Shown: positions 36,787 through 55,513, numbered from the stretch's first letter. The stretch: DNA of 64,000 nt from Candidatus Nomurabacteria bacterium (GCA_020631975.1 JACKGO010000002.1:71218-135217); one strand, 5' to 3'. Made by a program: numbers and translations. Notes: a model not told the origin generated them from the letters alone.

Positions 36787-36838
36787 TACCCTGCATTATA
36801 CCATAAGCACAATTTTTGCAACAGAGCTGGTAGCACTG

Positions 36839-37717: not shown

Positions 37718-37750
37718 CCTAAAAAGTATCTCACAGATATTGAGTAAAAT

Positions 37751-37781
37751 AAAAGAAACGGCTGCTATAACCGTTTCTTTT
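37751..37781 (-). terminator. terminator hairpin after the major pilin gene
   Basis: AAAAGAAACGG (37751-37761) pairs with CCGTTTCTTTT (37771-37781), with a T-run on the minus strand. It probably uncouples high pilin expression from pilD. Confidence 0.6.
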
Positions 37782-37798
37782 ATTTATATCTATACCCT

Positions 37799-38272: not shown

Positions 38273-38332
38273 GATTATGTTTACTTATAATACCTTAATA
38301 ATACTGTATTACCAATTAAATGCAAGCGTTTT

Positions 38333-39531
38333 TTAAGCGCCTAGCCCCTGATTAGCCAAGCCGTAAATAGGCAATAGCACCGCAGCAACAATAATAAGCG
38401 CCACGACACCCAGCACAATCATAAGTACTGGTTCTATGATGGTGTTGATGGTCTTAATTTGTTGATCTACTTCTTTTTCGTAATATTCGGCAGTTTTTTC
38501 TAGCATAGATTCTACCTGGCCAGATTGTTCGCCAATACGCAACATATTTGGCACTAATTCTAAGAAGTTCGGGTCGCCCTCGAGTGAATCTGCTAGGCTT
38601 TTACCACCTTTTACTTGGCTAATAGCGTGGTCTATAGAATCTTCTATGTATACATTATTTACCGATTTACTAGTAATTTCTAGCATCTGTAGCAGTGGTA
38701 CACCGCTGGCAACTAGCGTTGTACCAGTGCGGGCAAACGCGCCATGTACATCTTCATAAACAGTGGGCCAATAAGTGGTGCCTTCATTTTAAACTTGTCT
38801 ATAAATCGTTTGCCTCCAAGCGTGCGGGCCCATCTGCTACCAAAAAATACACCAAACCCTATTAAGATAATGACGACCCTCAGTAAGTAACAAGTGTGTT
38901 AGACATCCATAGTAGCACTTTAGTAATGAGTGGTAGTTCTGCACCCGGTAGGCTATCGTATAAAACTTTTACTTGCGGTAATACACCTACAAGCATAAAA
39001 CCAATGACCGCTAACATAACACCTACAACTACGAGTGGGTATACGAGTGCGCCACGTATTTTACCAAGAATTTCGGCGTCTTTTTCTTGCTGAAAAGCAA
39101 GCCGTTCAAGCGAGTTATCTAGCGTACCAGACACTTCACCTGCTGCCACAAGGCTCACAAACACCGTGCTAAACACTTTGGGGTGGGATGCTAGGGCGTC
39201 TGAAAGTTTTTGCCAGCTTCTACATCACCAATAACCTCTGCAATCACAATCTTCATGGGTTTGCTGCTAGTTTGGCGCTGCACGGTACGGAGTGATTGTG
39301 CCAGTGGTAAGCCAGCGCTAATAAGCGTGCTTAACTGGCGCGCAAACAGTATACGATCTTTTGCTTTAACTTTTTTGCCAAAGCCGCCTTCTTTTTCTAC
39401 TTTAATTTCTACAACTGCAAGGCCTTGGCCTTCTATGGCTTTGGCGGCGGCACGTTCGTTATCTGCCTGAACAGTAGAGGTAACTTTTGGCCAGTTTGCG
39501 GGTTGCGAGCGGTAAATGTAAATGTTGACAT
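38333..39531 (-). pseudogene. pilC: pilC (type IV pilus platform protein, GspF family) interrupted by four 1-nt frame defects
   Basis: The ATG at 39531 gives MSTFTFTARNPQTGQK. Continuing the PilC-like sequence requires frame changes near 39485-39488, 39203-39206, 38877-38885 and 38734-38742. The segments read ...VTSTVQADNERAAAKAIEGQGL...GKNF | SDALASHPKVFSTVFVSLVAAGEVSG...TLVTY | RVVIILIGFG...KMYMAR | FARTGTTLVASGVPLLQMLEITS...GLANQGLGA. Track ORFs 38880..39176 and 38333..38686 are two of the fragments. Confidence 0.85.
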
Positions 39532-39541
39532 ATAGGTGCGC

Positions 39542-40612
39542 CTAGCCTCTCATAAGCCTATCTAACTCTTCTAGGTCTACGGCATAATTACGTGCTTCTT
39601 CGTACGTAATTGTTCCGCTGTGAATAAGGCTCACTAGTGTTTTATCCATGCTTTGCATACCAAATTCTGCGCCAGTTTGTATAACAGCGTCTAGCTGATG
39701 CGTTTTGCCTTCACGCACAATGTTACGTACGGCCGGAGTTGCCACTAGTATTTCTGCAGCTGCAATACGGCCACCACCTATAGCTGGGATAAGCCGCTGC
39801 GAACAGATAGCCATTAAAATATTACTAAGCTGTGAGCGAATTTGTGGCTGCTGGTGTGGCGGGAACACGTCTATCATACGGTCTATACTTTGGGCGGCAC
39901 TGTTTGTGTGTAGCGTCGCAAATACCAAGTGGCCTGTTTCTGCAATTGTAATAGCAGCGGCAATCGTTTCTAGATCTCGCATTTCGCCAATAAGTACTAC
40001 ATCTGGGTCTTGGCGCAAGCTACTACGCAAGGCTGCACTAAAACTAAACGTATCGTAGTGAACTTCGCGCTGTACTATCACGCTTTTAAGGCTTTTATGG
40101 GTAAATTCTATTGGGTCTTCTATGGTAACGATGTGTTCTGCACGTTCGGTGTTAATTTTATGAATCATAGACGCCAAAGTAGTAGATTTTCCAGAACCAG
40201 TTGGCCCAGTAACCAATACTAAACCACGCGGGTATTCGGCAAATTTATTCACAATGTTTGGCAAGCCAAGTTGCTCAACAGATAAAAGCTCGCTTGGTAT
40301 TAAACGCAGCGCTGCTGCCAAGTTACCACGTTCGTGAAAGGCATTTACGCGGAACCGCCCTAAATCACCAAACGCAAAGCTAAAGTCAAATTCTTTGTCT
40401 TTTAGCAAAATCTGCTTTTGATCGTCATCTAGCAATGCAAACACTAAGCTTTCTACGGTTTCTTCTGTAAGAACATCTGTTCCACTTACTGCTTTTAAAG
40501 CACCATCTACACGCAACATGGGTTGCAAACCAACTTGTAAGTGGAGGTCACTGGCCTTTTTCTTGATTACTTCTTCTAGGAGTACTTCTATTCTTGGTTG
40601 TGCTACTTGCAT
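39542..40612 (-). CDS. pilT: type IV pilus retraction ATPase PilT
   Basis: 356 aa with Walker A GPTGSGKST, an AIRE-like and His-box region (TGHLVFATLHT) and a length typical of PilT. Confidence 0.9.
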   Translation of the reverse strand: MQVAQPRIEVLLEEVIKKKASDLHLQVGLQPMLRVDGALKAVSGTDVLTEETVESLVFALLDDDQKQILLKDKEFDFSFAFGDLGRFRVNAFHERGNLAAALRLIPSELLSVEQLGLPNIVNKFAEYPRGLVLVTGPTGSGKSTTLASMIHKINTERAEHIVTIEDPIEFTHKSLKSVIVQREVHYDTFSFSAALRSSLRQDPDVVLIGEMRDLETIAAAITIAETGHLVFATLHTNSAAQSIDRMIDVFPPHQQPQIRSQLSNILMAICSQRLIPAIGGGRIAAAEILVATPAVRNIVREGKTHQLDAVIQTGAEFGMQSMDKTLVSLIHSGTITYEEARNYAVDLEELDRLMRG

Positions 40613-40631
40613 GGTTCCACCTTATTATTTG

Positions 40632-42404
40632 TTATGCGCTATCTGATGCTGCAACGCGGTTGACTTCTGCTATAGAAGTTCGGCCACTTAATGCCTTAAA
40701 ATAGCCATCTTGCCGCATCGTTATCATCCCTTGCTGTTGTGCCATTTCTTGTATTTGGGCACTGGTAGCATGTTTGATAATTAAATCTTGTATTTCTTCG
40801 GTGACGCTAAAGACTTCGTAGAGTCCTAGGCGCCCTTTATACCCACCGGGTGTGATTGGTGAATCTTTACCCTTATACAAAGTATAAGCGTTTTGGTTAG
40901 CCAGTGGCAAGTCCCCGTAGCCTAAATCTTCTACAACGGCTGGTTTGGCTTCTTCTGTGGTTGGCAAAAAAGAGCCGATTGTCTCTGTTATGGCTTTTGC
41001 TTCTATGGGGCTAGATTCAGTTGGTTCTGGTTTATGCAAACGGCGTACTAAACGCTGGCCAATGACTGTCCGCACCGTACTGGCAATAAGAAACGGTTCT
41101 ATGCCCATATCGAGCAAACGGGGCAAAATACCAGCTGCACTATTTGTGTGCAGCGTAGACAGCACCAAGTGACCTGTAAGTGCAGCTTGCACTGCTAGGC
41201 TGGCCGTTTCTGCATCACGAATTTCCCCAACCATTACTACGTCTGGGTCTTGGCGCAAAATAGACCTTAGGCCACTGGCAAAGGTTAGCCCTACCTCACT
41301 ATTAACCTGTATTTGGTTAATGCCTTCCATTTTATATTCAACAGGATCTTCTAGAGTAACGATGTTAATTTCATCGCTTTTAATTTCTTGGATAAGCGCA
41401 TACATACTGGTTGATTTACCAGAACCAGTAGGCCCAGATGTTAAAATCATCCCATTAGGATTTTTAGCACCTTCACGAATCGTACGGAGGGCTCTACCAG
41501 AATAGCCCATGTCTTCTAGCATAAGGCTAGTGCCAGATTTATCTAGCAAACGAATAACACACTGTTCACCCCATACCACGGGCGAGATTGCAATACGCAG
41601 ATCAATAGCTTTGCCACCGGCCATAATACTAAACTGGCCGTCTTGTGGTATGCGATGTTCGTCTATTTTAAGGTTAGATAAAATTTTAATGCGCGATATA
41701 AGTGCTGGTTCGGTAGATTTTGGTAACTTCATAATTTCGCGTAACACGCCATCTATACGGCAACGAATTTTGAGTTCTTTTTCTAGTGGTTCTATATGAA
41801 TATCACTGGCGCGACTTTTGGCTGCATAATCCATAATTGCTGCCAAGGCTTTACTAATAGGCGAATCTTGAACAATGGTTTGAATACTCTTTGTCTTGGT
41901 AGCACCGGCGGCATCGTCTGACTTTTTTTGTTCGAGGGCTTTTTCTACATCCTTCGTAACATCAACACCATACTGTTTAATAACATCTTCTATACCCTGC
42001 TGGCTCGCCATGTACACTTTAAGCGGGCGACCAATTTTGTTAGATAAAAAGTCTACAGCCTGCACGTTGCTGGCATCTAACATAGCTACAACCAGCCTAT
42101 TTTGCATTTCGCCAAGCGGTACGGCCATGTAACGCTCTGCAACCTCTAACGGCAACAAAGACAGCACTTTAGGGTTTACGCGGGCAGTGCTAAGGTTTAC
42201 GTACGGTACACGGGTTACTTGGGCAATAGCTTTGGTAAGTTCTTCGCCGGTAACGTGTTCTTCGGTAACTAGTAACTGAAAAAACGGTTCACCTTTTTCT
42301 TTCGCTTTGGCGTGCACGGCATCTAGCTGGGCTTTTTCTATGAGACCGTTTTTAACCAACAGCTGCTCTACCTGTTTTTGAGTATCTTCTAGTAGTACGG
42401 GCAC
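40632..42404 (-). CDS. pilB: type IV pilus assembly ATPase PilB (GspE family)
   Basis: 590 aa with a GSPII_E N-terminal domain, Walker A GPTGSGKST, and LRQDPDVVMVGEIRD and TGHLVLSTLHT motifs. Confidence 0.9.
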   Translation of the reverse strand: MPVLLEDTQKQVEQLLVKNGLIEKAQLDAVHAKAKEKGEPFFQLLVTEEHVTGEELTKAIAQVTRVPYVNLSTARVNPKVLSLLPLEVAERYMAVPLGEMQNRLVVAMLDASNVQAVDFLSNKIGRPLKVYMASQQGIEDVIKQYGVDVTKDVEKALEQKKSDDAAGATKTKSIQTIVQDSPISKALAAIMDYAAKSRASDIHIEPLEKELKIRCRIDGVLREIMKLPKSTEPALISRIKILSNLKIDEHRIPQDGQFSIMAGGKAIDLRIAISPVVWGEQCVIRLLDKSGTSLMLEDMGYSGRALRTIREGAKNPNGMILTSGPTGSGKSTSMYALIQEIKSDEINIVTLEDPVEYKMEGINQIQVNSEVGLTFASGLRSILRQDPDVVMVGEIRDAETASLAVQAALTGHLVLSTLHTNSAAGILPRLLDMGIEPFLIASTVRTVIGQRLVRRLHKPEPTESSPIEAKAITETIGSFLPTTEEAKPAVVEDLGYGDLPLANQNAYTLYKGKDSPITPGGYKGRLGLYEVFSVTEEIQDLIIKHATSAQIQEMAQQQGMITMRQDGYFKALSGRTSIAEVNRVAASDSA

Positions 42405-42417
42405 TTTTTAGTACTCC

Positions 42418-42648
42418 TTACTGTGAATAGTCGCCAATAGTAATATTCTTGGTTGGGTTAAGCGATTGGGGGTTAAAGAATCGTTCGTCTGGTGTAGGAA
42501 ATTCAGCAGATATTGGCTGTACTTCTGGGGCTTCTAGCAATTTGCTTTGGTCTGTCTGTGTGCCAAACAGTGCATTAGAAATCACATAACTAAAGATAGC
42601 ACTCACAATGGCGATACCTACAATAACCATAATATCTTTGCGTTTCAT
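42418..42648 (-). CDS. small single-TM protein in the pilMNO block (PilP-position)
   Basis: 76 aa with an N-terminal TM helix. It is contiguous with the pilO-like stop. Confidence 0.4.
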   Translation of the reverse strand: MKRKDIMVIVGIAIVSAIFSYVISNALFGTQTDQSKLLEAPEVQPISAEFPTPDERFFNPQSLNPTKNITIGDYSQ

Positions 42649-43389
42649 TTAGTTACTACTCCCTGTTGTGTTAGTGTCTGTAGCCGGCGGTGTTGCTTCG
42701 TTACCACCAATAAATTTACCATTTTTATCTACTTTTTTGTACTGAATGCCTAAGTCTTTAGCTGGTTGATAGAACGTTTCGCCCGTAACTTTTACACTAA
42801 CTACACCGCCCTCAGAGGCTGTGAAATCAACCGAATGAATTTTAAATGGTCGGATAGACCGCTGCAGATCAGTGAGTAATTTTTGGGCAGCTTCGTACGT
42901 ACCAATTGCACCAAATTCAAACGGTATAGCAATAGGTGTTGGGTTCACGCTACTCTGTTCTGCAGAAATTTCTTGGTCTGCTCCTGTAATGCTCTCTACG
43001 GACATACCAGCACCAGTAATGATGCCATCTATACTGGTGGTAAGGGCCGGAAAGTCGTATTTACTTGGTAGTGCATCGAGCACAATTTTGCTATTTTTTT
43101 CTGATGTGCCCAGCACAGATTCTGGACTTTCATCAAACGCCGCAAACGAGACAACAAGCTGATCTTTTGCGTCTATGTTTTCTTTAAGCTGTTTATTGGC
43201 AACATTTCTTTTGCTAATCACTTTGTTTTGGTAGCTAATCTTATCTATTAAAGCCTTACTGGCAAATAAGCTAAATACGACAATGGCTGCAGCCACCGCA
43301 GCGGCAACAATAACTGTGGTGTTTGCCTTATCTACCAATACGTGCTTGGTAGATAGCTGGCCAAAGCCCTTTGGTAATGCACGTGCCAT
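42649..43389 (-). CDS. pilO: PilO-like pilus biogenesis protein
   Basis: 246 aa with a TM helix, a coiled-coil and a ferredoxin-like C-terminal region (ALPSKYDFPALTTSIDGIITGAGMSVESI). It shares one base (43389) with pilN. Confidence 0.6.
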   Translation of the reverse strand: MARALPKGFGQLSTKHVLVDKANTTVIVAAAVAAAIVVFSLFASKALIDKISYQNKVISKRNVANKQLKENIDAKDQLVVSFAAFDESPESVLGTSEKNSKIVLDALPSKYDFPALTTSIDGIITGAGMSVESITGADQEISAEQSSVNPTPIAIPFEFGAIGTYEAAQKLLTDLQRSIRPFKIHSVDFTASEGGVVSVKVTGETFYQPAKDLGIQYKKVDKNGKFIGGNEATPPATDTNTTGSSN

Positions 43390-44081
43390 TATTGAGCCTC
43401 CTGTGAATCTGAGCTAGGTGCAAATATTGTGCTAGATGGTAACTGTGTTTGTGACCGAGTAGTCGTAATATTAGGAATAAGCAATTTTATATCTGTATTT
43501 GCAGAAGAAAATAGTTGATCGCTAAACTTAAAATCAATCGTAAAGGTATAACCTTTTTCTGATTTGCTAAACGATGATAATACTACTTCGCTAAACGCAT
43601 ATTGCTTTTCTTGGTTTTCTTGTATTGGTGCGATTTCTGTGAACTTTAAGGTGTCTACATATTTATTCACAAGTTCTATGCTTGGTGCTTCGCCATCTAC
43701 AGACCACGTAAAATCTTCGTTATTAATGACGTACTTTTCTAGTACCACAGAGTCTGGAGTTGTTTGCTGCAAGTACGTAAATAATCGTTCCATAACTGGC
43801 TTAGATTCATGCAATGGGGTGAGTGCAAAAAGCTGGTTTTGAATGGTAAGTATTTTGTCTAAATCTTTTACGTCTTTAATATTTTGTTCACTTTTAGCTA
43901 TGTCGTTTTTTAGATTATTAAGCTGAAGTTGCTGAGTACCATACGCCACGCTAGCTAACAAACCAACCACGCCAAGAGACACGGCCACCGCGATAATAGA
44001 AATAGTTATAACAGTACGCTTTGTGCGTTGTGCTTTTACGTATTCTGCTTTAATGCTTGGTAGTAAGTTAATCTGTATCAT
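43389..44081 (-). CDS. pilN: PilN-like pilus biogenesis protein
   Basis: 230 aa. The N-terminus MIQINLLPSIKAEYVKAQR, followed by a TM helix, is the canonical PilN start. Confidence 0.75.
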   Translation of the reverse strand: MIQINLLPSIKAEYVKAQRTKRTVITISIIAVAVSLGVVGLLASVAYGTQQLQLNNLKNDIAKSEQNIKDVKDLDKILTIQNQLFALTPLHESKPVMERLFTYLQQTTPDSVVLEKYVINNEDFTWSVDGEAPSIELVNKYVDTLKFTEIAPIQENQEKQYAFSEVVLSSFSKSEKGYTFTIDFKFSDQLFSSANTDIKLLIPNITTTRSQTQLPSSTIFAPSSDSQEAQ

Positions 44082-45118
44082 TCTATTCGCTCCGCCAAGC
44101 CTGCTGCCACACCAAAATGGTTGCTTACAGAAAGTAGTTCGTTTTGTTTATCTGCTGGGAAAGTGACATTACGCCAAGCGTTGCCTATTTCTACATTGAT
44201 ACCAAACTTATTGGCGATAAACAGCGGGAACTCCGGTAGTGTAGATGCGCCACCGGTGACAACTATCTTTGTAATTGGTGCGTTTGGGTAACGTGTTTGG
44301 TAAAACTTAATTGACTTTTCTATTTCTGATACTAATGTTTCTACTGTGCCTATAATTGCAGCGTATATCTGGCCTTCTAGCTTGTCTTTACTTAGGCCAA
44401 ATTTATAAACAAACTGCTCGGCTTGTTTATCGTCTATGCCAAGCCCTTGCATAGCAGCTTTTATAATAGCGTCCGAACCTGTGGGGATAGACCTGTTAAG
44501 TTTTGGCGTACCGCCGGCAACAATGACGAGGTCTGAATAATTTGTACCAATGTCTACGACTACTTGTGGAGCGGTATCATCACTACTGGTCATGGCTCGC
44601 GCTAGTGCAATGGTGTCTGGTTCAAAGGCAATAACATTTAACCCAATTGCTTCTAGTGTGTCTAGACGTTGCTCTACATAAGTGTTGGCAACACTAGAAA
44701 TAAGTACTTCTACTTTGTTGGCATCTACTGGTGAATCACCCAATAGCGCCCAGTCTATTTTACTTTCGTCTAGTGGCGTGGGTATGAGTGTGTCTGCCTG
44801 AAATTTAATATTTTTGGCAAGTTCAGATGGGCTAAGGCGTTCTATGTCTACAACAGTAGTAAAAACACGTTGCGATGGCAAACCAACCGTCACATTTTTA
44901 GTATTCACTCGTGCTTGGGCGACGAGCTCTTTTATAATGCTGGCTACTTTTTGTTGATCTGCTTTTGCGTCTGATAGAACTAATTTTGTATCTATAGGGG
45001 TAAGTGCGTATTTTACTAGCGCTTTTACGGGCCCACTTCCTCTTAATTGTACTAGGCGGATTGCCGACGTTCCAATATCAAGGCCAAAAAAGTCTGAGAC
45101 GCCACTTAGGACACTCAT
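44078..45118 (-). CDS. pilM: PilM, actin-like pilus assembly ATPase
   Basis: 346 aa with FGLDIGTSAIRLVQL and an FtsA/actin-like fold pattern. It overlaps pilN by 4 nt. Confidence 0.85.
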   Translation of the reverse strand: MSVLSGVSDFFGLDIGTSAIRLVQLRGSGPVKALVKYALTPIDTKLVLSDAKADQQKVASIIKELVAQARVNTKNVTVGLPSQRVFTTVVDIERLSPSELAKNIKFQADTLIPTPLDESKIDWALLGDSPVDANKVEVLISSVANTYVEQRLDTLEAIGLNVIAFEPDTIALARAMTSSDDTAPQVVVDIGTNYSDLVIVAGGTPKLNRSIPTGSDAIIKAAMQGLGIDDKQAEQFVYKFGLSKDKLEGQIYAAIIGTVETLVSEIEKSIKFYQTRYPNAPITKIVVTGGASTLPEFPLFIANKFGINVEIGNAWRNVTFPADKQNELLSVSNHFGVAAGLAERIE

Positions 45119-45170
45119 AGTGTTTATTCTAAAGCATAACCGCTACACAAGCAAACAAATTATAGTTATT

Positions 45171-47939
45171 TTACAACTTTGGTGGTACCACAAACATGGC
45201 ATCCACGGTATCGCCAGGAGTGCTTTGGTTTTTAAGGTATGGTTTAGCAAAATATAAATATGCTGGGTAGTTAATAATTTCTGCTGATTTGCCAGTATTG
45301 TTTGGCATGTTACCTCTATCTGCACAGTTTTGTATGCCCTTACTAACGTTGCAGTTTTGCTGCTCGTCACCTGGTGAGGTATTTAAGTACCTACTACCAC
45401 CGCCTCTTCTAAAATCTATAGTAGGTGCAGAAACCGCTCCATTTATATTTAAAGGCACCCTACAGGTTGAATGTATCTGATTTTGCCCTACCTTTGCAGC
45501 TGGGCCATAACCTGCGTATCCACAGGTATATATACCTGTTTTAGAAACTAAAATTGCATCTATGCGCTTAACATTGTTATCTACTACAATGGGACCTTCG
45601 GAAATAATTAAAAGCACACCAGTCTTTGCAGGATCCGTATAATTTGCTGCACTAGTAAGATTGATGACATCACCTACAATCATCAACATCTTATCTGTAG
45701 GATTGACGGCCGTTATTTTTTTGGTATATGTAGTTACTCCACTGCCAAAAGTATCACCCCAGCCTAATACGGGTATGCCACCATTATCTTTAGCCCAGTC
45801 AGGAACAGGCAATGAGTTATTGGTGGGAGTTAAAGAAGTAGCTTTTTTTATAATATAACAACCGTCTTCAGTAGCATTGAGCCCGCCACTCTCAATTTCA
45901 CCACATGTTTTTGGCAAATTCCCAGTTACATCTGTATACACTTGGTTGGCATTTTTACCTGATATAGCTTTTGAGCCAGAGGCATCTAGACCATCTGGTG
46001 GTACAGGGTTAATGGTACGAAACGCCGATGTATCTATAGTAACTGTACCAAACGCTAACGCTGCATATTGGTCTACACTACCCCTTTTAGTGGTACCACT
46101 AGGGTTATCTGTAGAATTAAAGCGTATATCGCCTGCTGTCGCATATATGTCATTACCGTAAAAACGAGCAAAGGGGACTTCATAGACGAGGATTTCACCA
46201 CATTTTTGTTGTTCATTATTAACACTTAGGCAATATTTAATACCGCTGAGGCCTGGGGCTGATTGGTTGAGCTGACCGATAATTGCTGCAGGAATTGGAA
46301 TAACATTTGTCGGCGGATTGCAGCCATAAGCCCCACCATACCAAAAACCAGTACCCGCAGGTGATGACACTCCACCAATGCTCCAACTAAATGGTATCCG
46401 TATCGGGGTCGACGGGCAACTTCCGCCGTTATTTACTTTTACATCAGCTTCGTTGATAGAAATGCTTTCGCTGCCCTTCTCGTAGCTAACAGTAGTAGGC
46501 ACATCACCGTCAGGGTCAATAATGTGCACACAATCACTAGTGCTCGTTGTAGCGTCACTATTCCAGCTTGTTGGTGTGAATGATAACGTATCACAATAAT
46601 TACCTACATTATTCATTACAATAGACCGTGCTGGTACCGTTCCAACACCTGTTTGTCTCTTGGTGCCTACGTTCGAATCAGTAGGTATATCGTATGATGT
46701 GTAATCATCTGCCATACCTGTATCACCCGTAACATCGCCGTCAATAGATTCATCGTTTTTATCTGGGCCAATGTTTTCTATAGAATGAGAATAACTAACC
46801 GTTTGCCCGGTAAAAGCTGTGCGTTGTCTGCTAGCACTACCAGAAATAGTCCATTTAGGGGGGTTGTTACATGGCGGCTGTTCATTCATCGGGAACACCA
46901 TGAGTGATAAATAATTTTGAGCATTAAGATCGTTAATAGTTAATTTGTAATTTATACCACGTTTAATTGTATACTTTAACCATGCAAAATTATCAGAACT
47001 CTCCCAATTACTTGCTTGGGTTGCGTCATGCAAAGGTTTGTATCTATTTGCGTCAGTTTTATCCCAACCTACCTCTTTAGCCCATTTGCTTGCAGATGTG
47101 CTTGTATCTATAGCTTTCATTCGATTGCCGGTGTCTTTTCTTGTAAGCCCAAAGTATAAATCTTTAAAAACATAACCATCAAGTACTTTACCCCTACCAT
47201 TATTTGATCCGTCATAATCAAATGTTTTTCGATTATAAGGAGCTCCAGGGCTGTTATTATCTTGTGCGCCCCTAGCATTGTTATCTGCATAATTATCTAT
47301 GTCATATGCGTAAATTATTCCTGTTTCATTAGAAGTCGAATAACAATTTAAATTCATATTGATATTTATGTCGGTGTATACAGAGCTGTCTGTGGAGTCT
47401 ATCGCTATGGGGACTGTATAATCATAGCTGAGACTGCCTACAAAACCGATATGCTTTGCTTCATCCACCTGTACCTTAAACTTCATACTGCTTTCGTCAG
47501 GAGGGCTATTCATTTTAATAGTAAACATGTATTTTGTTAAAGCTAACTGAGAATCATAAAAAGCGCCAGCAATATCATAAGAAACTTTAAATTCATTATC
47601 ATTGTCTTTACAATCACGCGTAGTGCTATTAATGCTATTCCCAAATATATCAATTCTATCAAATGTGTATTTAAATTTTTTCACACAATTTAAGTTATCT
47701 AGAATTACTTTAAATGTGCGATCTTTAGTTGTGGTGGTATTCCCATCCATGTACACCGCAAAAGACATTGCCGTATCTACGTGTTTAGAATCATCCCTGG
47801 CAAGCTTTATAGATATTGGTTCGTTCGACCACTGAGTACCCGGCCATTTTAAGGCCAATGCAGAATTACCAAATGCAAATAATGAAAAGCTTATTAACAA
47901 AAATAGTGATAATACTTTGTAGTGCATAGCTTTCATCAT
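45171..47939 (-). CDS. large secreted protein of unknown function, first-in-line with the pilus operon
   Basis: 922 aa with an N-terminal signal peptide (MMKAMHYKVLSLFLLISFSLFAFGNSALA). It is rich in Asn/Thr/Gly/Asp and has many Cys. No motif recognised. It overlaps the upstream gene by 4 nt and lies 52 nt upstream of pilM. Confidence 0.6.
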   Translation of the reverse strand: MMKAMHYKVLSLFLLISFSLFAFGNSALALKWPGTQWSNEPISIKLARDDSKHVDTAMSFAVYMDGNTTTTKDRTFKVILDNLNCVKKFKYTFDRIDIFGNSINSTTRDCKDNDNEFKVSYDIAGAFYDSQLALTKYMFTIKMNSPPDESSMKFKVQVDEAKHIGFVGSLSYDYTVPIAIDSTDSSVYTDININMNLNCYSTSNETGIIYAYDIDNYADNNARGAQDNNSPGAPYNRKTFDYDGSNNGRGKVLDGYVFKDLYFGLTRKDTGNRMKAIDTSTSASKWAKEVGWDKTDANRYKPLHDATQASNWESSDNFAWLKYTIKRGINYKLTINDLNAQNYLSLMVFPMNEQPPCNNPPKWTISGSASRQRTAFTGQTVSYSHSIENIGPDKNDESIDGDVTGDTGMADDYTSYDIPTDSNVGTKRQTGVGTVPARSIVMNNVGNYCDTLSFTPTSWNSDATTSTSDCVHIIDPDGDVPTTVSYEKGSESISINEADVKVNNGGSCPSTPIRIPFSWSIGGVSSPAGTGFWYGGAYGCNPPTNVIPIPAAIIGQLNQSAPGLSGIKYCLSVNNEQQKCGEILVYEVPFARFYGNDIYATAGDIRFNSTDNPSGTTKRGSVDQYAALAFGTVTIDTSAFRTINPVPPDGLDASGSKAISGKNANQVYTDVTGNLPKTCGEIESGGLNATEDGCYIIKKATSLTPTNNSLPVPDWAKDNGGIPVLGWGDTFGSGVTTYTKKITAVNPTDKMLMIVGDVINLTSAANYTDPAKTGVLLIISEGPIVVDNNVKRIDAILVSKTGIYTCGYAGYGPAAKVGQNQIHSTCRVPLNINGAVSAPTIDFRRGGGSRYLNTSPGDEQQNCNVSKGIQNCADRGNMPNNTGKSAEIINYPAYLYFAKPYLKNQSTPGDTVDAMFVVPPKL

Positions 47940-48547
47940 AATGTATCCTTAAGGGTCGCATAATACTGTATTAAGCTAGATAAGCTTTGCTGGCTGTCTG
48001 GTGGCACTTCTGTCATTCTTTGGTTGAGCATGACTACTAGTTCGCCTGCTACGGCGCGCGCTTCTTGTTTATAGCCATTCGCAATCAGCGAAGTTACCAA
48101 CCACTCAGAGGCCTCAATACTAAGTTTAATACCCTGGGGTTGAATTTGGTTTATATAGATCTCTGCTGTGCGGCGTGTATCTTCTAAGGCAGTTAGTTTT
48201 GATACGATTGATTCGTAGTATTCGGTCTTCTGGGTAATAGAAGCATCGCTTGGTAATTTTTGCTGAAGTAGGCTATCTAATGAACCCGCTACATCATCAA
48301 GTTGGAGTTGAGGCTCGGGGAAGACTAATTTATCATCACTACGATTAATATACCAAGCGCCAGTGGCTACCAACAGTATCAATGCACAAAGGCTAATCAC
48401 GATAATAAATATATTTTTACGATTTTTAAGAATAGTAAATTTCGAGCTGGACCCAACGCTACTTACAATTGTTTTACTGTTTTGCGTTGCTGAAGGGCGC
48501 TTGGCGAGCGCAATGTCTTTATTGGTTGGTTTTTTATGGTGTTTCAT
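47936..48547 (-). CDS. single-TM anchored helical protein, unknown function
   Basis: 203 aa with a basic N-terminus, one TM helix (IFIIVISLCALILLVATGAWYI) and an alpha-helical ectodomain. Confidence 0.5.
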   Translation of the reverse strand: MKHHKKPTNKDIALAKRPSATQNSKTIVSSVGSSSKFTILKNRKNIFIIVISLCALILLVATGAWYINRSDDKLVFPEPQLQLDDVAGSLDSLLQQKLPSDASITQKTEYYESIVSKLTALEDTRRTAEIYINQIQPQGIKLSIEASEWLVTSLIANGYKQEARAVAGELVVMLNQRMTEVPPDSQQSLSSLIQYYATLKDTL

Positions 48548-48612
48548 ATAAATATTAGTGGGTTTCTTATAATTAAGTTAATCATAAGCATTAAATTTAA
48601 GCAAAAAAATAC

Positions 48613-48675
48613 GGGTGCCCCAGCTGGGCTGGTGCTCGGTATTAGCGAGCACACAGCACACAGCTAGGACACCCT
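48613..48675 (-). terminator. long GC-rich terminator of the GC-rich island gene
   Basis: On the minus strand GGGTGTCCTAGCTG...CAGCTGGGGCACCC forms, with an inner GTGCTCG/CGAGCAC stem. It is followed by GTATTTTTTT. Confidence 0.65.
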
Positions 48676-48683
48676 TGCTACCG

Positions 48684-49466
48684 TTAAGCTTTCAGCTTAA
48701 CGGTCTTGGCCTTGTAGGGTCCGCCGACTTCGCGGACCGTGATCTTGACCTTGGCCTTCTTGGTCTTGGGCTTGACCTTGAAGGTGCACTTAGCAGACGT
48801 TACCATCCGCTTCTTGGGCTTGACTTTCGCCTTGCCCTTCACAACCTTGGTCTTGCACTGCCACTTGGTGGCGGTGCCAGACTTCCAGGTCGCCTTGACC
48901 TTGGTCTTCTTTACCTTGACCTTCAGGCCTTTGACAGCCTGAGGTTGTGGTACTGACTGGGTCGGCGTCACTGTCGGTGTTACCGTTGGTGTCGGCTCCA
49001 CCGTTGGGGTGGGTGTTGGCGTCACCGTCGGTGTTACCGTTGGTGTCGGCTCTACCGTGGGGGTTGGCGTTGGTGTCGGCTCAACCTCGCACAGAACCAA
49101 TGAGAATATTCCGGTACTCTGAGTCCCGAGGTTCTCCGTAAAGAGACGGCCTTCCATAAATATCTCTACACCACGAGGTAACTGCCTTCTCACAGTGAGT
49201 ATCTTTGGGCCTACCTCTCCTGACACCAAACCGTCCATTGACACCAGGTCTCCGTACGGTCCTATGAACGTCATCAGGCTACCCGTACCTGAGTTAGCCG
49301 GTAGCACGAAATCTGCTACCAGGGCATCTTCGTCACAATCGTACCAGACTGTTAGCCCAAAGTCGGGCTCTTCTGCCGTAGCTGGGGTGGTTCCGAGCAC
49401 CCCGGCCAGAATGAGCGTCACCGTTCCCAGCAACGCCCAAAGGATCTTCGGAATGTTTTTCAACAT
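48684..49466 (-). CDS. secreted protein with Pro-Thr repeat linker and Lys-rich C-terminal domain (GC-rich, probably foreign)
   Basis: The likely start, MLKNIPKILWALLG (ATG 49466), is preceded by GGAAGGAGGTGAT. It has a signal peptide ending ATAEE. A duplicated VEPTPTVTPTVTPT block and a KxKVK-rich tail follow. Line 48721-48780 is 36/60 G+C. Confidence 0.7.
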   Translation of the reverse strand: MLKNIPKILWALLGTVTLILAGVLGTTPATAEEPDFGLTVWYDCDEDALVADFVLPANSGTGSLMTFIGPYGDLVSMDGLVSGEVGPKILTVRRQLPRGVEIFMEGRLFTENLGTQSTGIFSLVLCEVEPTPTPTPTVEPTPTVTPTVTPTPTPTVEPTPTVTPTVTPTQSVPQPQAVKGLKVKVKKTKVKATWKSGTATKWQCKTKVVKGKAKVKPKKRMVTSAKCTFKVKPKTKKAKVKITVREVGGPYKAKTVKLKA

Positions 49467-49647
49467 CCGAATCACCTCCTTCCTAATTGTCATTCTTCAT
49501 CGGCCAGGGTGGCCAAGGAAGCTTCTAGGCCCTACATGTATTGCTACACATAGAACACTCGTGTAATATAATACCAGCTTTTAACTAAAAAGTAAATAGC
49601 AACGCGCTTATGTAGTTGCAAAAAATGTAATCGCGTTTAAAAAATGG

Positions 49648-50139
49648 TTATTTTGGCAAAGATACGTTTGCTTTTTTAGCAATATGCACTATAGCTTTAT
49701 AAGCCTCTACAATTTGATCTTCTAAAGGTTGCTGCTGATACTTACTTACAGCTGGGTCTTTTTTGGCCAATATTTTATAAATTTCTTTCACATCGTTTTC
49801 TAGTGCTTCTAGGCGACCTTCTATATTTTCTAGGCGGTTATTCGTTTGCGCCTGGGCCGTTTCTATATTTGTTACACGAGATTCTAAACTACCTAATCTG
49901 CTTTCTACTTTATCTAAACGTTTGTCTACCATATCTAAACGTTTGTCTACCATATCTAAACGTTTGTCTACCTTATCTAAACGTTCGTCTACTTTATCTA
50001 AACGTTTGTCTACTTGTTCGAACCGCTCGTCTACCTGGGTTGCAAAATCACTAATTATTTCTGCTAAGCTATTGACTGCTTTGTTTATAGCTTTATCAAC
50101 AATTTCTTGTACGTCTTGTTTGGTCGCGTAGTCACTCAT
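49648..50139 (-). CDS. coiled-coil protein with tandem heptad repeats (VDKRLDK)
   Basis: 163 aa. It contains five or more consecutive 7-aa units encoded by 21-bp tandem repeats. Confidence 0.6.
   Translation of the reverse strand: MSDYATKQDVQEIVDKAINKAVNSLAEIISDFATQVDERFEQVDKRLDKVDERLDKVDKRLDMVDKRLDMVDKRLDKVESRLGSLESRVTNIETAQAQTNNRLENIEGRLEALENDVKEIYKILAKKDPAVSKYQQQPLEDQIVEAYKAIVHIAKKANVSLPK
49911..50016. repeat. 21-bp tandem repeat, about 5 copies (ATCTAAACGTTTGTCTACCAT and variants)
   Basis: Direct reading of 49911-50016. The repeat is in-frame within the coiled-coil CDS. Confidence 0.85.
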
Positions 50140-50200
50140 ATTATAGAAATTGTAGCACGCAAGCTACGCTTTAGTAAAAAGCAATATTGCACAGCCGTTC

Positions 50201-50229
50201 TTGCCTAAATGTTATCTTTTAAGTATACT
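50201..50229 (+). promoter_or_regulatory. candidate promoter of phd-doc-ychF
   Basis: TTGCCT (50201-50206), a 17-nt spacer, then TATACT (50224-50229). Confidence 0.45.
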
Positions 50230-50254
50230 TATAAAATAACTTTAAGGACATACT

Positions 50255-50467
50255 ATGACAATTATTGGCTTAAAAGAACTTTCACAAAACGCTGGTAAAA
50301 TTGCAGAGCGTGTAGCAAATGGCGAACGTTTTACTGTTGTTAAAAGGTCAAAGCCGGTGTTTGAGATATTGCCCCCTAGCACTACGGCCGATAACGAACT
50401 GGCTGAATGGACCAAGGACGCTATAAAACAATACCGCCCCGCTCTAGACGCTTTGAGTAAAAAGTAA
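50255..50467 (+). CDS. type II antitoxin, Phd/YefM-like
   Basis: 70 aa. The N-terminus MTIIGLKELSQNAGKIAERVANGERFTVVKRSKPVFEILP fits the antitoxin fold pattern. Its stop overlaps the doc start. Confidence 0.7.
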   Translation: MTIIGLKELSQNAGKIAERVANGERFTVVKRSKPVFEILPPSTTADNELAEWTKDAIKQYRPALDALSKK

Positions 50468-50859
50468 TGCGATACATTAGTGCAGACGATATTGTATTTA
50501 TTCATGATGTCATCATAGTTGAAACAGGCGGTGCTTTAGGGGTAAGAGAGCCTGGGCTGTTGCTATCGATAGCAGAAAAACCAAAGACTCGTTTTGGTAC
50601 GTACGATTTATACCCAGATATATACGTGAAAGCTGCCTCGCTATATGAAAGCATTTGTAATTACCATGTATTTATAGACGGTAATAAAAGAACGGCGGTA
50701 CTAACTATGTATCGGTTTTTATATTTAAATGGCTGTATATTGCTTGCAGATAATAAGACTATAGAAGAATACACTCTTTATATAGTAAACAATAAGCCAG
50801 ACATCACAGAAATTGCTAAATGGATAAAAAAGCATAGCAGAAAGGCAAAAAATATATGA
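50467..50859 (+). CDS. doc: type II toxin, Doc (Fic/death-on-curing family)
   Basis: 130 aa with the Fic-type motif HVFIDGNKRTA. Confidence 0.85.
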   Translation: MRYISADDIVFIHDVIIVETGGALGVREPGLLLSIAEKPKTRFGTYDLYPDIYVKAASLYESICNYHVFIDGNKRTAVLTMYRFLYLNGCILLADNKTIEEYTLYIVNNKPDITEIAKWIKKHSRKAKNI

Positions 50860-51938
50860 GTGTAAGTATTGGAATCGTTGGCCTACCTAACGTAGGTAAA
50901 AGTACCCTGTTTAATGCGTTAACCAATAATAATATATTGGCTGCAAACTACCCTTTTGCGACCATAGAGCCAAATACAGGGATTGTACCAATACCCGACC
51001 CACGGCTAGATGCGCTTGCCAAGCTTTATAACAGTAAAAAAATCATCCCCGCTACGGTAAAATTTACCGATATTGCCGGCTTAGTTGCCGGTGCCAGTAA
51101 GGGCGAAGGTTTAGGCAACCAGTTTTTAAGCCATATCCGTGAATGTGCAGCGATTGTGCAGGTGGTACGTGGCTTTACTGACCCAAATGTTGTTCATGTA
51201 GACAATACCCATAACCCAGCCAACGACATAGACGTCATAAACACCGAGCTTGTACTGGCAGATTTGCAAACACTAGATAAAGTATTGCCCCGATTACAAA
51301 AAGAAGCTCGCACTAACCCAAAATTGAAACCGCAGCTCGATATTTTAAAAGAAGTCCAAGCTATTCTTGACGCTGGCAAACCACTATATAGCGATGAAGG
51401 TTTAAGGTTAGAGGTTATAGGTTATAGAGAGCTGCAACTACTTACGGCAAAACCTATAATTTATTTGTTCAATGTAGATGAAGACAGCCTTAGTAATGCA
51501 GCTGTGCAAACAAAACTTGCACAAATGGTTTTACCAAACGCTGCCTTGTTTGTTAATGCCAAGCTAGAAGATGAACTACGGAGCCTAGACGAGGCCGAAA
51601 GAACAGAGATGCTGGCAGAATATGGTGTACAAGAATCTGGGCTTGTTCAGCTTATACACGCTGCTTATGAAACATTGGGTTTACAAAGCTACTTAACCGC
51701 AGGCGAAAAAGAAGTCCGAGCCTGGACAATAAAAAAAGGCGCTACTGCGCCGCAAGCTGCCGGGGTAATACATGGTGATTTTGAACGCGGCTTTATTGCC
51801 GCTGATGTTGTAGACTACCAAGATTTAATTGCAGCCGGGTCACTGGCAGCTGCCCGCGCTGTTGGTAAAGTGCGTACAGAGGGCAAAACTTACGTTATGC
51901 AGCCTGGTGACGTCGTAGAATTTAAGTTTAACGTCTAG
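50856..51938 (+). CDS. ychF: redox-regulated ATPase YchF
   Basis: 360 aa with G1 GLPNVGKST and a C-terminal TGS-like domain. Its ATG overlaps the doc stop (ATGA). Confidence 0.93.
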   Translation: MSVSIGIVGLPNVGKSTLFNALTNNNILAANYPFATIEPNTGIVPIPDPRLDALAKLYNSKKIIPATVKFTDIAGLVAGASKGEGLGNQFLSHIRECAAIVQVVRGFTDPNVVHVDNTHNPANDIDVINTELVLADLQTLDKVLPRLQKEARTNPKLKPQLDILKEVQAILDAGKPLYSDEGLRLEVIGYRELQLLTAKPIIYLFNVDEDSLSNAAVQTKLAQMVLPNAALFVNAKLEDELRSLDEAERTEMLAEYGVQESGLVQLIHAAYETLGLQSYLTAGEKEVRAWTIKKGATAPQAAGVIHGDFERGFIAADVVDYQDLIAAGSLAAARAVGKVRTEGKTYVMQPGDVVEFKFNV

Positions 51939-53690: not shown

Positions 53691-53809
53691 ACTTATATTA
53701 TATCATACCTGTGCTTTTTAGTCAATTTTTGTAAAAACACTTGTACTATACAACATAGTTGGGTTGGTGGGGCGTGGGCAGTATTGCACCACACGCCCCA
53801 CCTTGGCAA

Positions 53810-54376
53810 TCAGCCCACCAGTATGTACTGACGGGTGCAGGTTGGGGACCAGAACATGGTCTTCACCTTGTTCCAGGCCATGTCTGATAGTACCGGATTT
53901 TTGCCAGGTTGTACCAGCTTGACCACTGGCCGTACCCATCGGTACACCTTGCCATTTTGCCCCACAACGTACGGAACGTTGATTTCGGGCATGAAGGCGA
54001 CGTCAGCCTGAAACTCGCCAGGGCCGAGTTCTTGATCCCATCTGAATACCGTAACTGGTGCAGAGTTAAGTTTCTGCTTGCCACGGAGAATCAGACGAAA
54101 TTTTGCCCACTTGTCGACATACAGTGTGTCGAGAGTAGCGAAGAGGTTGAAGATACGTTCATCATAACTCTCTTCGCCCACAACGACTTGCTGCAGGCAC
54201 CATGGTGGTTGCACGAATGCAGTCGGCTGGGGAGCAACTTCGAACTCTTGGCCGATGTTGTCTGTTGCTTCTGACGAAACCGGTGTCGGCAGGTTCTGTG
54301 CCCAGGCATGCCCAGACACAGTCACGAAGAACACCGTAGCTAACGCTACGGCAACCCTACGAGCTTTTGCTGTCAA
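53810..54376 (-). CDS. secreted hypothetical protein (GC-rich island)
   Basis: 188 aa with a TTG start preceded by GAGAGGA and the signal peptide MTAKARRVAVALATVFFVTVSGHAWA. Line 54001-54060 is 33/60 G+C. A GC hairpin, GGTGGGGCGTG/CACGCCCCACC, lies downstream at about 53768-53803. Confidence 0.6.
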   Translation of the reverse strand: MTAKARRVAVALATVFFVTVSGHAWAQNLPTPVSSEATDNIGQEFEVAPQPTAFVQPPWCLQQVVVGEESYDERIFNLFATLDTLYVDKWAKFRLILRGKQKLNSAPVTVFRWDQELGPGEFQADVAFMPEINVPYVVGQNGKVYRWVRPVVKLVQPGKNPVLSDMAWNKVKTMFWSPTCTRQYILVG

Positions 54377-54452
54377 TGTACCATTCCTCTCAAGAATTCG
54401 GATGATTGCCGAGTACTACTTTAACATAAATTAAAATATTTTACAAGCATAA

Positions 54453-55513
54453 CGTAATGACTCAACAGCTTTGCAACACATAACATGTGGCTGTTCTACA
54501 CTGTAAGTGTACTAATCTAAACAGGAGAACAGCCACATGAGCTATTCTAGCAACCCATTACTACCTAAAGCGAGAGCAGAAGCCGTTAGGCTCGTCATTG
54601 AGCAAAGTATGCCTTTGACAATTGCTGCAAGAAGATGTGGAGTCCACCGCACAACCTTATGGCGTTGGCTACGCAAATGGGAGCTACTAAACCAGAATGT
54701 TCAGCTCACCAATGTCAACCGACCAAAAAGAAACTCAGATTCCCAAGTGCCCAGCAGCTTTCGTCTCGCAGCTTGTACGTGGCGTATACCTACCAACAGT
54801 AGCCGACCTCATTTCTTTGGTCGGGCAGTACCCAATATGGTTGTTGAACGCATTCGGTATTACCGCACTAAGTACAACCGTTGCGCAACAATTGTTCACG
54901 CCTACTGCAAACAAGAAGGTACCGAAGTGTCACTCAGTACGGTTCGTCGGGTATTGTACCGACTCGGGTTGGTGGTACGACAAAAGTGGCAACGTCGGTG
55001 GCGTCCGCCACTACCGCGCCCAGATGTACAGTGTCCAGGTGACTTCATTCAAACCGACACGGTACACCTGTATGATCACCGAACAAAAAAGCGGAGCTAT
55101 TTGTATACACTGGTTGATGTTTACTCTCGTTGGGCGTATGCCGAATACAGTACTGTGCTCAGCCAGCGTGTAGCCGCTGCAGTCATCCAGCGAGGCCAGG
55201 CCTATGCTCAGTTCCGTTTCAAAACCGTCCAGGCTGACAATGGACCCGAATTTAGTAAGAACTTTGAAGAGCTACTTAAAGCGCAAGGTACGACAGTACG
55301 TCACAGTAGAGTGCGACGACCGAATGACAATGCTCACATAGAGCGGTTCAACCGGACAATACAAGAAGAATGTATTGGTTCCACAAATCCATTCTCTAAA
55401 GAACTATATGGCAAGGTAGCAAACTACCTTGCCTACTACAACGAAGAAAGGCTACACTTGAGCTTAGAGTGTAGAACACCAGCGAGTGTTGCAAAGGTGT
55501 TGAACTAATTACG
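54453..55513 (+). mobile_element. IS481-family insertion sequence (1061 bp) with inverted repeats and a 6-bp target duplication
   Basis: The termini are CGTAAT...ATTACG. The left repeat (54453-54479) matches the reverse complement of the right repeat (55486-55513) in about 24 of 27-28 aligned positions with one 1-nt gap. The core TCAACA(G/C)CTTTGCAACAC is shared. GCATAA flanks both ends (54447-54452 and 55514-55519). Confidence 0.85.
54537..55508 (+). CDS. IS481-family DDE transposase (HTH plus rve integrase core)
   Basis: 323 aa with an N-terminal HTH (TIAARRCGVHRTTLWRWLRKW). The DDE context is IQTDTVHL, VQADNGPEF and HIERFNRTIQEE. The RBS is AGGAGAACAGCCAC-ATG. Confidence 0.88.
   Translation: MSYSSNPLLPKARAEAVRLVIEQSMPLTIAARRCGVHRTTLWRWLRKWELLNQNVQLTNVNRPKRNSDSQVPSSFRLAACTWRIPTNSSRPHFFGRAVPNMVVERIRYYRTKYNRCATIVHAYCKQEGTEVSLSTVRRVLYRLGLVVRQKWQRRWRPPLPRPDVQCPGDFIQTDTVHLYDHRTKKRSYLYTLVDVYSRWAYAEYSTVLSQRVAAAVIQRGQAYAQFRFKTVQADNGPEFSKNFEELLKAQGTTVRHSRVRRPNDNAHIERFNRTIQEECIGSTNPFSKELYGKVANYLAYYNEERLHLSLECRTPASVAKVLN

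Follow-up and report, generated by a model that had tools for sequence, protein, structure and literature searches.

The DNA analysed here, a stretch of 64,000 nucleotides (nt) from Candidatus Nomurabacteria bacterium (GCA_020631975.1 JACKGO010000002.1:71218-135217; hereafter the window, whose own coordinates are used throughout), carries on its minus strand a cluster of type IV pilus genes headed by two overlapping open reading frames (ORFs), one for a 922-amino acid (aa) exported protein, called the large protein below, and one, immediately upstream of it, for a 203-aa membrane-anchored partner. The pair is firmly identified as a Saccharibacteria-specific, exported two-gene module that is fixed at the head of the pilus operon and joins a constant C-terminal third to an exchangeable N-terminal part and partner. 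The partner and the N-terminal two-thirds of the large protein are exchanged wholesale between near-identical strains. What is new is a pilus-associated modular surface protein from new families, organised as an unusual cassette, and the pair is a strong candidate for the part that decides what parasitic Saccharibacteria adhere to. Pilus docking, ligand binding, host recognition and a chaperone role are inferred for its components.

A modular gene pair fixed upstream of pilM

The large gene ends 52 nt before pilM on the same strand, and the terminator scan found no terminator-like site in this spacer, as a first-pass annotation of the window had reported; near the 3′ end of the gene the scan gave just a weak 5-bp hairpin, within coding sequence. 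The two overlapping same-strand ORFs were also recovered as that annotation had placed them. Their junction is ...TTATGATGAAA, read as TTATGATG, so that the overlap is 4 nt (ATGA) when counted from the first ATG of the large gene and 1 nt from the second ATG, which is the one used by the public gene call P0001 (921 aa). Directly upstream of the partner gene stands a very strong hairpin with a U-run (-49.7 kcal/mol, z=-7.1; 0/200 shuffles fold equally well), and the transcription unit of the pair therefore plausibly starts just after it.

The same arrangement recurs in relatives. Of 13 genome loci, all 10 that are decidable have a homologue whose end lies 44-68 nt before pilM, and the gene order downstream of pilM is conserved in those that extend that far. 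The other three are no exceptions: L004 and L012, which have the ychF flank, are truncated at contig ends, and L011 is a tandem array whose second, fused copy runs off the contig. This last locus had been considered as an unlinked copy; Rfam gave no RNA in its apparently empty 2.3 kb downstream, where translation shows the second copy, and it is therefore no counter-example.

The converse test was a PilM-anchored metagenome scan of 80 loci, with PilM 62-100% identical to that of the window, 63 of them informative in having at least 500 nt upstream of pilM. A family member lies upstream of pilM in 60 of these 63, ending 35-732 nt before it; a 61st locus (L084) has a divergent member ending in ...SLPPVL, and in the two true negatives the place is taken by ychF (L052) or a histidine kinase (L063). 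The co-occurrence of the pair with pilMNO that had been put forward as a check is thus borne out, with a member directly upstream of pilM in 61/63 metagenome loci and 10/10 decidable genome loci. The first-pass annotation had named homologues mostly unlinked to pilus genes, or an enzyme fold, as outcomes that would speak against its proposal; no demonstrably unlinked family copy was found, with 13 genome loci sampled, and no enzyme fold emerged.

Tandem second copies, an arrangement typical of recognition proteins, are present in L014, L025, L040, L043, L046 and L011, two of them with their own partner ORF. At another locus, L003, a 5′ fragment of pilM (positions 1..90; residues 10-39, 77% identical) lies directly upstream of a partner gene, a large gene and a complete pilM; it may mark a recombination anchor that was duplicated, or a place where the assembly joined strain variants.

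The pair is an accessory of the pilus cluster. In Southlakia epibionticum ML1, a cultured oral strain, ychF (SEML1_0103) lies 12 nt from pilM (SEML1_0104) with no island in between, and 13 pilus genes after ychF are essential, SEML1_0104-0107, the equivalents of pilM, pilN, pilO and the 76-aa protein gene, included. Since these pilus genes are essential in a strain that lacks the pair, the pair is not a core part of the machine; L052 has the same empty site. The pair goes unmentioned in the published accounts of the pilus loci of TM7x and Southlakia, which begin at pilM.

The exchange of the cassette is documented by a close relative, L095 (GCA_041402185.1, JAWKST010000001.1), a near-complete genome with flanks 94-97% identical to the window. 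On the pilM side, 46187..35154 is 97.4% identical through the whole pilus cluster, and on the far side 48600..49055 is 84% identical and the ychF block 96%; no DNA similarity between the two sequences was found across 46188..48600. At the protein level, identity to the L095 protein is 18-19% over aa 30-360, 27% over aa 361-555, 87% over aa 556-720 and 100% over aa 721-922, and the two proteins are identical from YEVPFARFYGND onward, which is the most conserved motif of the family. Close relatives show the same profile, with 18-22% identity over aa 30-360 and 69-100% at the end of the protein. Two loci with PilM 92-93% identical (L016, L017) have unrelated N-terminal 300-360 residues and different partner types, and L002 has the N-terminal type of the window, yet a more divergent C-terminus. 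No silent or duplicate cassette and no second C-terminal module were found in the window. The N-terminal hypervariability and the cassette exchange fit a recognition role. Many genes of L095 are split in gene calls (ychF, pilN, pilC, an rRNA methyltransferase and the partner, a tetratricopeptide repeat (TPR) protein), which suggests a frameshift-prone assembly, so its gene models need care.

The large protein begins with a Sec (type I) signal peptide, its sole hydrophobic segment, without the G/F...E5 prepilin motif; at least 90% of the 31 family members in the alignment have Ala29. It has 16 Cys, its commonest residues are S/T/G/N/D at 7.8-8.7% each, and neither a C-terminal anchor nor an LPXTG motif was found in it. 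The signal peptide, the richness in Asn/Thr/Gly/Asp and the Cys pairs described at first pass are thereby confirmed, and the reported lack of a catalytic motif agrees with the searches, in which no catalytic family was matched.

The family had escaped annotation. The large protein matched nothing in Pfam, NCBIfam, PHROGs, PADLOC or PDB sequences, and a profile search of PDB sequences gave nothing either. A word-indexed protein search, whether queried by the protein or by a 31-sequence profile, gave back an identical metagenome copy alone; an exhaustive HMMER search found 111 representative homologue clusters, 31 of them below 1e-30, so that detection of the family rested on the exhaustive search, the word-indexed one being insufficient. 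Genome matches are all metagenome-assembled genomes of Saccharibacteria/Patescibacteria, except for one contig binned as Prolixibacteraceae (L011). Members range from ~350 to 1450 aa, and the 70 that were scanned (1 + 30 + 39) share no Pfam domain. The label on the two named public copies listed is 'hypothetical protein', and the fused form takes its name solely from the SurA N-terminal domain; no description of the family was found in the literature. The large protein is the founding window member of an unnamed Saccharibacteria-specific family, and two families are unannotated: a ~370-aa C-terminal module and locus-specific membrane-anchored TPR/PpiD-like partners.

Conservation was profiled as mean identity to the query per 40-residue block of the 31-row alignment. 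It is 10-28% over aa 1-360, ~19-35% over aa 361-560 and 40-59% in most blocks of aa 561-922, with a dip to 24-36% at aa 681-760, inside the C-terminal module. A profile of this module (aa 555-922) matches 110 of the 111 representatives and reaches the last residue in nearly all. Residues invariant across 91 sequences are P589, G595, C806, C826, L830, G834, R845, E887 and P920, and the module thus contains an invariant pair, Cys806/Cys826. In the 31-sequence alignment, invariant positions include E587, V588, P589, F593, Y594 and G595 of the motif EVPFARFYGND, as well as E887, N890, P892, Y894, L895 and P920 of the C-terminal tail.

The full-length AlphaFold2 (AF2) model, built from the 31-sequence alignment, is all-beta, with several sandwich domains (predicted local distance difference test score (pLDDT) 75, predicted template modelling score (pTM) 0.45). 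A fold search with the whole model against PDB and BFVD returned only arrays of immunoglobulin (Ig), fibronectin type III (FN3) or macroglobulin type at a template modelling score (TM-score) of ~0.1. These generic arrays were rejected as a specific identity and say little beyond a string of beta-sandwiches; an Ig-like fold, one of those suggested for checking, was in this sense found. The C-terminal module was modelled with more sequences (91; pLDDT 78.5, pTM 0.82), and its best fold neighbours are the DUF3494 ice-binding beta-solenoids. The match is weak (E=0.011, TM-score 0.29/0.43, root-mean-square deviation 8.5 Å), and the top matches, 4nu2 and 3uyu, have E=0.011-0.014 and TM-scores of 0.24-0.43, none reaching E<=0.001. 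In the full-length model the last ~17 residues (aa 906-922) have pLDDT < 50 although they are conserved, which would fit a peptide that folds on a partner. No beta-propeller or enzyme fold was among the fold-search matches and no lectin fold was recognised; the PilY1/Neisseria_PilC model (PF05567) and the DUF3494 model (PF11999) of Pfam matched none of the 70 family members scanned. The PilY1-like, beta-propeller and lectin folds that had also been suggested thus found no support, and the module has beta-solenoids as its neighbours.

The partner combines a Lys/Arg-rich tail, one transmembrane segment and a putative, degenerate TPR-like ectodomain. A basic 45-residue tail followed by a single transmembrane segment places its helical C-terminal part outside the cell (N-in). 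The partner gave no match to Pfam, NCBIfam, PHROGs, PADLOC or PDB sequences, including none to TPR or SurA_N models, and its tail holds no PilN-like INLLP motif. A profile of the short, helical partner subgroup to which it belongs aligns to the TPR-type profile with 95% probability (E=2.6e-8, 70 columns; hhalign). The same tail and transmembrane architecture is found in the partners of related loci wherever a separate partner ORF was found: 24 of the 40 complete large ORFs from metagenome loci are preceded, at a gap of -17 to +3 nt, by an ORF of 150-360 aa with one N-proximal transmembrane segment, and such an ORF is also present in eight genome loci, twice in L014. Sequence conservation across the partner slot is very low. 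TPR_1, TPR_2, TPR_8 and TPR_21 match 2-6 each of 35 partner-slot proteins (TPR_21, which is YfgM-type, matches 2), and SurA_N_2 and SurA_N_3 match 3 and 5. The SurA_N-type partner carries a parvulin-like remnant and is either a separate protein of 311-356 aa or fused to the large protein; PpiD-like fusions of 1198-1452 aa occur in at least five lineages (L024/L006, L046, L059, L080, L090). Partner type and N-terminal type co-vary, though not strictly (odds ratio 7, p=0.003, uncorrected for phylogeny). Membrane-anchored TPR and SurA_N proteins such as YfgM, PpiD and PrsA are extracytoplasmic chaperones, and TPR lipoproteins pilot secretins. The window also encodes a separate housekeeping PpiD/PrsA-like foldase (29037..30119, minus strand; SurA_N_3 and parvulin rotamase), a possible evolutionary source of the PpiD-like partners and fusions of other lineages.

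The pilus cluster and the variable island

By Pfam, the type IVa core set is present downstream of the pair: PilM, PilN, PilO, PilB, PilT, PilC, a prepilin peptidase and major and minor pilins (Table 1). The 358-aa protein, encoded by the last gene of the cluster, corresponds to Southlakia SEML1_0116, which likewise has a TadG/GspK-like N-terminal segment, and to TM7x PilX1, a proposed tip pilin, and a XerC-like recombinase gene (32980..33918, plus strand) closes the cluster, as it does in Southlakia (SEML1_0117). No secretin family was matched by the scanned genes of 33919..48547 or by ten other large ORFs of the window; the statement that the locus has no secretin gene stands, and the absence fits a monoderm-type pilus system.

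The description of the pair as heading a pilM-pilC operon holds in part. Its position before pilM and the cluster order are as described, and pilC itself is split into at least four reading-frame segments (tblastn, frames -1/-3/-2/-1) by at least three frameshifts, with the other pilus genes intact. In a metagenome contig 99.2% identical to the window (L015) one more A stands at 39488, which makes at least one of these frameshifts specific to the window sequence. The breakage reflects either a pseudogene and a defective pilus, or sequence or assembly error.

Table 1. Features of the gene pair, its flanks and the pilus cluster (window coordinates)
Feature	Coordinates	Strand	Remarks
ychF	50856..51938	+	Pfam YchF-GTPase_C, MMR_HSR1; conserved divergent flank bounding the far side of the island
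Intrinsic-terminator-like long hairpin and U-run	48603..48679	-	closes the upstream gene; left edge of the cassette is here
Partner gene	47936..48547	-	203-aa ORF
Partner, cytoplasmic tail, aa 1-45	48413..48547	-	Lys/Arg-rich, ~11 Lys/Arg
Partner, transmembrane segment, aa ~46-67	48347..48412	-	Kyte-Doolittle 19-residue windows up to 2.89
Partner, TPR-like helical ectodomain, aa 106-177	48017..48232	-	hhalign-aligned columns
Large gene	45171..47939	-	922-aa ORF; Sec-exported all-beta protein
Signal peptide, aa 1-29	47853..47939	-	cleavage predicted between ALA and LKWPG; sole hydrophobic segment
Variable N-terminal two-thirds, aa 30-584	46188..47852	-	tandem Ig/FN3-like beta-sandwich domains; exchanged between strains with the partner gene
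C-terminal module, aa 555-922	45174..46277	-	conserved, family-defining, beta-solenoid-like
Motif EVPFARFYGND, aa 587-597	46149..46181	-	(near-)invariant; at the recombination breakpoint
C-terminal tail, aa 886-922	45174..45284	-	consensus AEIINFPAYLY..PYL......F.APPRL
Exchanged cassette	46188..48600	-	promoter region, partner gene and large-gene codons 1-584
Spacer between large gene and pilM	45119..45170	-	52 nt
pilM	44078..45118	-	PilM_2, E=2e-41
pilN	43389..44081	-	Pfam PilN
pilO	42649..43389	-	Pfam PilO
76-aa transmembrane protein gene	42418..42648	-	pilus cluster gene after pilO
pilB	40632..42404	-	Pfam
pilT	39542..40612	-	Pfam; retraction ATPase
pilC (frameshifted)	~38333..39540	-	Pfam
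Major pilin gene	37799..38272	-	Pfam
Prepilin peptidase gene	36839..37717	-	Pfam
Minor pilin genes	36052..36786, 35564..36064, 34996..35673	-	Pfam
PilX1/GspK-like capping pilin gene, with extra domain	33919..34995	-	358 aa, TadG/GspK-like N-terminal segment

On its other side the pair lies in an island of variable content. The distance from ychF to pilM is 5.7 kb in the window and ranges across loci from 237 nt (L052, the empty site) to 8.8 kb. Besides the pair, the island of the window holds genes for a 269-aa exported protein with long Thr-Pro repeats and a Lys-rich C-terminal half (48684..49493, minus strand), a 163-aa coiled-coil protein with internal repeats (49648..50139, minus strand), a Phd/YefM antitoxin (50255..50467, plus strand) and a Fic/Doc toxin (50467..50859, plus strand). 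The gene of the Thr-Pro protein has a G+C content above that of its surroundings, and the very strong terminator hairpin comes after it; with its L095 counterpart it shares only two stretches, of 84-88% DNA identity. A 1.26-kb stretch (49596..50855) is absent from L095, and the ychF-pilM gap therefore collects mobile cargo.

Elsewhere in the window, 53776..55513 is an insertion relative to L095 (1.7 kb vs 0.7 kb) with a raised G+C content of 0.50 and an rve-family transposase gene (54537..55508, plus strand), probably an insertion sequence element. Two further large genes are unrelated to the pair: the product of 5739..7727 (plus strand), 662 aa with repeats of DUF11, DUF7507 and DUF7927, is likely another surface protein, and that of 8318..11236 (minus strand), 972 aa, gives weak matches to AAA_22/DUF87 (HerA-type ATPase).

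Function of the pair and alternative explanations

The favoured reading, put at about an even chance, is of a modular surface protein, coupled to the pilus as an accessory, in which a conserved part docks, a swappable region binds and the cognate partner serves as chaperone or anchor. The pair would belong to the Saccharibacteria type IVa 'T4P-1' cluster as an accessory module, most likely transcribed from its own promoter just past the strong terminator, with read-through into pilMNO. The 922-aa protein is exported by Sec, and its constant C-terminal third, comprising a disulfide-containing, beta-solenoid-like portion and a flexible tail ending in PP(R/K)L, would dock to a conserved component of the pilus apparatus or fibre. 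The N-terminal string of Ig/FN3-like domains would then be the exposed, diversifying part that binds a target surface, for which the envelope of the host bacterium is the most plausible candidate. The partner may serve as the cognate extracytoplasmic chaperone of the variable part, as its membrane tether, or as both, and such a cognate helper would for that reason be exchanged together with the variable part as one cassette, by recombination presumably anchored at the invariant EVPFARFYGND motif. A bolder version, possible though on balance doubtful, is that in environmental Saccharibacteria this plug-in host-range module heads the only or main pilus operon and the cassette type sets which host can be attached, oral strains having lost the module, with a second pilus (T4P-2/PilX2) as a substitute.

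The first-pass annotation had proposed a pilus-associated adhesin for host recognition. The pilus linkage, the adhesin-like Ig/FN3 architecture and the N-terminal hypervariability sustain that proposal in part; neither a PilY1-like fold nor a location at the pilus tip is borne out, and recognition of a host stays a putative role.

Several observations weigh against the favoured reading. Docking to the pilus and binding are inferred rather than directly observed, and pilC is frameshifted, so that the pilus may be non-functional in the window sequence. The C-terminal module is not PilY1-like, which leaves the analogy with PilY1 a functional one only. The fusions to a membrane-anchored PpiD-like module in at least five lineages are hard to reconcile with a protein that leaves on the tip of a pilus, and these anchored fusions place the conserved module, not the variable one, distal to the membrane. 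A protein that others have proposed for the tip is already present in the cluster, in the PilX1-like capping pilin with its extra domain. Hypervariability could equally reflect escape from phages or other enemies, and the association of partner type with N-terminal type is only partial. In a mirror-tree comparison PilO and the 76-aa protein ranked top (partial r 0.54 and 0.48, 24 loci), a signal that is confounded by evolutionary rate and was lost in a 10-locus set that included the pilin.

Some of these same observations would suit a structural accessory for an envelope without a secretin, in which the large protein forms a membrane-tethered Ig-like stalk whose conserved distal beta-solenoid makes or supports a collar, or a guide, that leads the fibre through the wall or surface layer, in function comparable to PilP/PilQ/TsaP. 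In this case the TPR partner would be an assembly factor, as PilF/PilW/Tgl are for the secretin, and variability a by-product of surface exposure. The fixed place at the head of pilMNO (61/63 loci), the cluster without a secretin, the N-terminal anchored fusions that put the conserved module distal, the weak co-variation with the extracytoplasmic PilO and 76-aa proteins and the parallel between the TPR partner and known TPR pilotins, which PilF, PilW and Tgl are, can all be cited for it. Such a role is nevertheless unlikely: Southlakia and L052 have no island at the site, and the pilus genes of Southlakia are essential, so the machine works without the pair there; replacement of a whole cassette between 97%-identical genomes and tandem alternative copies would be unusual for a core part; and lengths run from ~350 to 1450 aa. 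The variable island points in another direction, to a surface adhesin or surface-layer protein that is independent of the pilus and merely lies beside its genes, or is expressed with them, through a permissive ychF-pilM hotspot or for timing with pilus retraction. The gap does differ in size between loci, its unrelated cargo (the Phd/Doc pair, the coiled-coil protein and the Thr/Pro-rich protein) is wholly or partly absent from L095, the architecture is adhesin-like, and a multi-step adhesion in which pili act before close-range adhesins has been put forward for Saccharibacteria (PMC11623550). Yet while the other cargo varies, the family is always pilM-proximal and in the same orientation, usually within 35-300 nt; the 3′ third of the large gene is inherited with pilM, and no copy was found outside the island in the 13 genome loci sampled. 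Independence from the pilus is accordingly regarded as quite improbable.

The tail of the large protein, which is highly conserved, has low model confidence and invariably closes the sequence, would also suit a cargo that the pilus exports through the wall as a piston, by docking to the minor-pilin tip, like TcpF of Vibrio cholerae and CofJ of enterotoxigenic Escherichia coli. The gene lies inside a pilus cluster with a retraction ATPase, and a folded protein of ~100 kDa would need a route through a thick wall. This has a slim chance of being correct, given that membrane-anchored fusions would not be released, that release from the cell is an assumption only, and that TcpF and CofJ are small proteins with an N-terminal docking peptide. 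Scarcely credible is a polymorphic effector and immunity pair, in which a variable toxin is delivered to the host and the small membrane protein protects its producer: the variable part is N-terminal and built of Ig/FN3-like sandwiches, with no enzyme or pore-former fold; the small gene lies upstream, is TPR-/PpiD-like and sometimes fused to the large protein, unlike known immunity proteins; and no toxin was matched in PADLOC or Pfam. The exchange of a variable region and an adjacent small gene as a unit between close strains, in an organism that parasitises other bacteria, is what speaks for it. Phage-derived and defence-system readings were dropped, as neither protein had a PHROGs or PADLOC match.

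Significance and comparison with known systems

Genetic work on how ultrasmall bacteria of the candidate phyla radiation (CPR)/Patescibacteria recognise and attach to their bacterial hosts has so far been done in oral strains, of which at least one genetically studied example (Southlakia) lacks the pair at the ychF-pilM site. The pair singles out a definite locus, found in almost all environmental Saccharibacteria and physically linked to the pilus operon, that looks as a specificity determinant would be expected to: one end is constant and the other exchangeable, alternatives occur in tandem, and recombination has a sharp junction at an invariant motif. With such a candidate, host range in CPR bacteria becomes directly testable, and the C-terminal module and the TPR/PpiD-like partner class could enter annotation resources.

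Among known systems, polymorphic toxin/immunity cassettes differ in polarity and content, as the variable part here is N-terminal and Ig-like rather than a C-terminal toxin, and the small gene is upstream and TPR-like rather than a downstream immunity gene. DUF3494 ice-binding-like proteins are the nearest, if weakly matching, structural neighbours of the C-terminal module, which may resemble their IBP-1 fold, a right-handed beta-helix flanked by an alpha-helix; they differ in that their Pfam model matches none of the 70 members scanned. In Nanosynbacter lyticus TM7x, of the same phylum, PilX1 and PilX2 are candidate tip pilins; they belong to a pilus cluster of the same type, have extra beta domains and are likewise proposed to bind the host (PMC11623550). 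They are pilin-like 'lollipop' proteins with an N-terminal helix, whereas the 922-aa family is three times the size, starts with a Sec signal peptide, is encoded at the opposite end of the cluster and is absent from that report.

The partner slot resembles PpiD-YfgM of the Sec translocon and PrsA of Gram-positive bacteria in being N-in and single-pass, with a TPR ectodomain or a SurA_N domain and parvulin-like remnant. Unlike these chaperones, the partners are hypervariable, belong to one locus and can be fused to what is presumed to be their client; a housekeeping gene of this kind exists separately in the window, whose own partner has no Pfam match.

The PilY1/PilC proteins of Pseudomonas, Neisseria and Myxococcus are also large, Sec-exported non-pilins encoded in a type IVa cluster, with a conserved C-terminal and a variable N-terminal part and with paralogues that have different N-termini in one genome. 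Unlike them, the 922-aa family has a beta-solenoid-like C-terminal module with no propeller and no PF05567 match, its gene lies upstream of pilM, ~8 kb from the minor pilins (34996..36786) in the same cluster and on the same strand, and the protein has a dedicated membrane-anchored partner to which it is sometimes fused. In phage cassettes of a tail-fibre or receptor-binding protein and its chaperone, the polarity is mirrored, the conserved end here being C-terminal and the helper gene upstream, and the helper here is membrane-anchored and TPR-/PpiD-like, at a cellular pilus locus without phage genes. In both, a conserved attachment end is kept while the variable part and a small helper gene are co-exchanged at a conserved junction. 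By analogy, then, the logic of the pair appears to resemble that of PilY1/PilC, and still more that of phage receptor-binding protein and chaperone cassettes.

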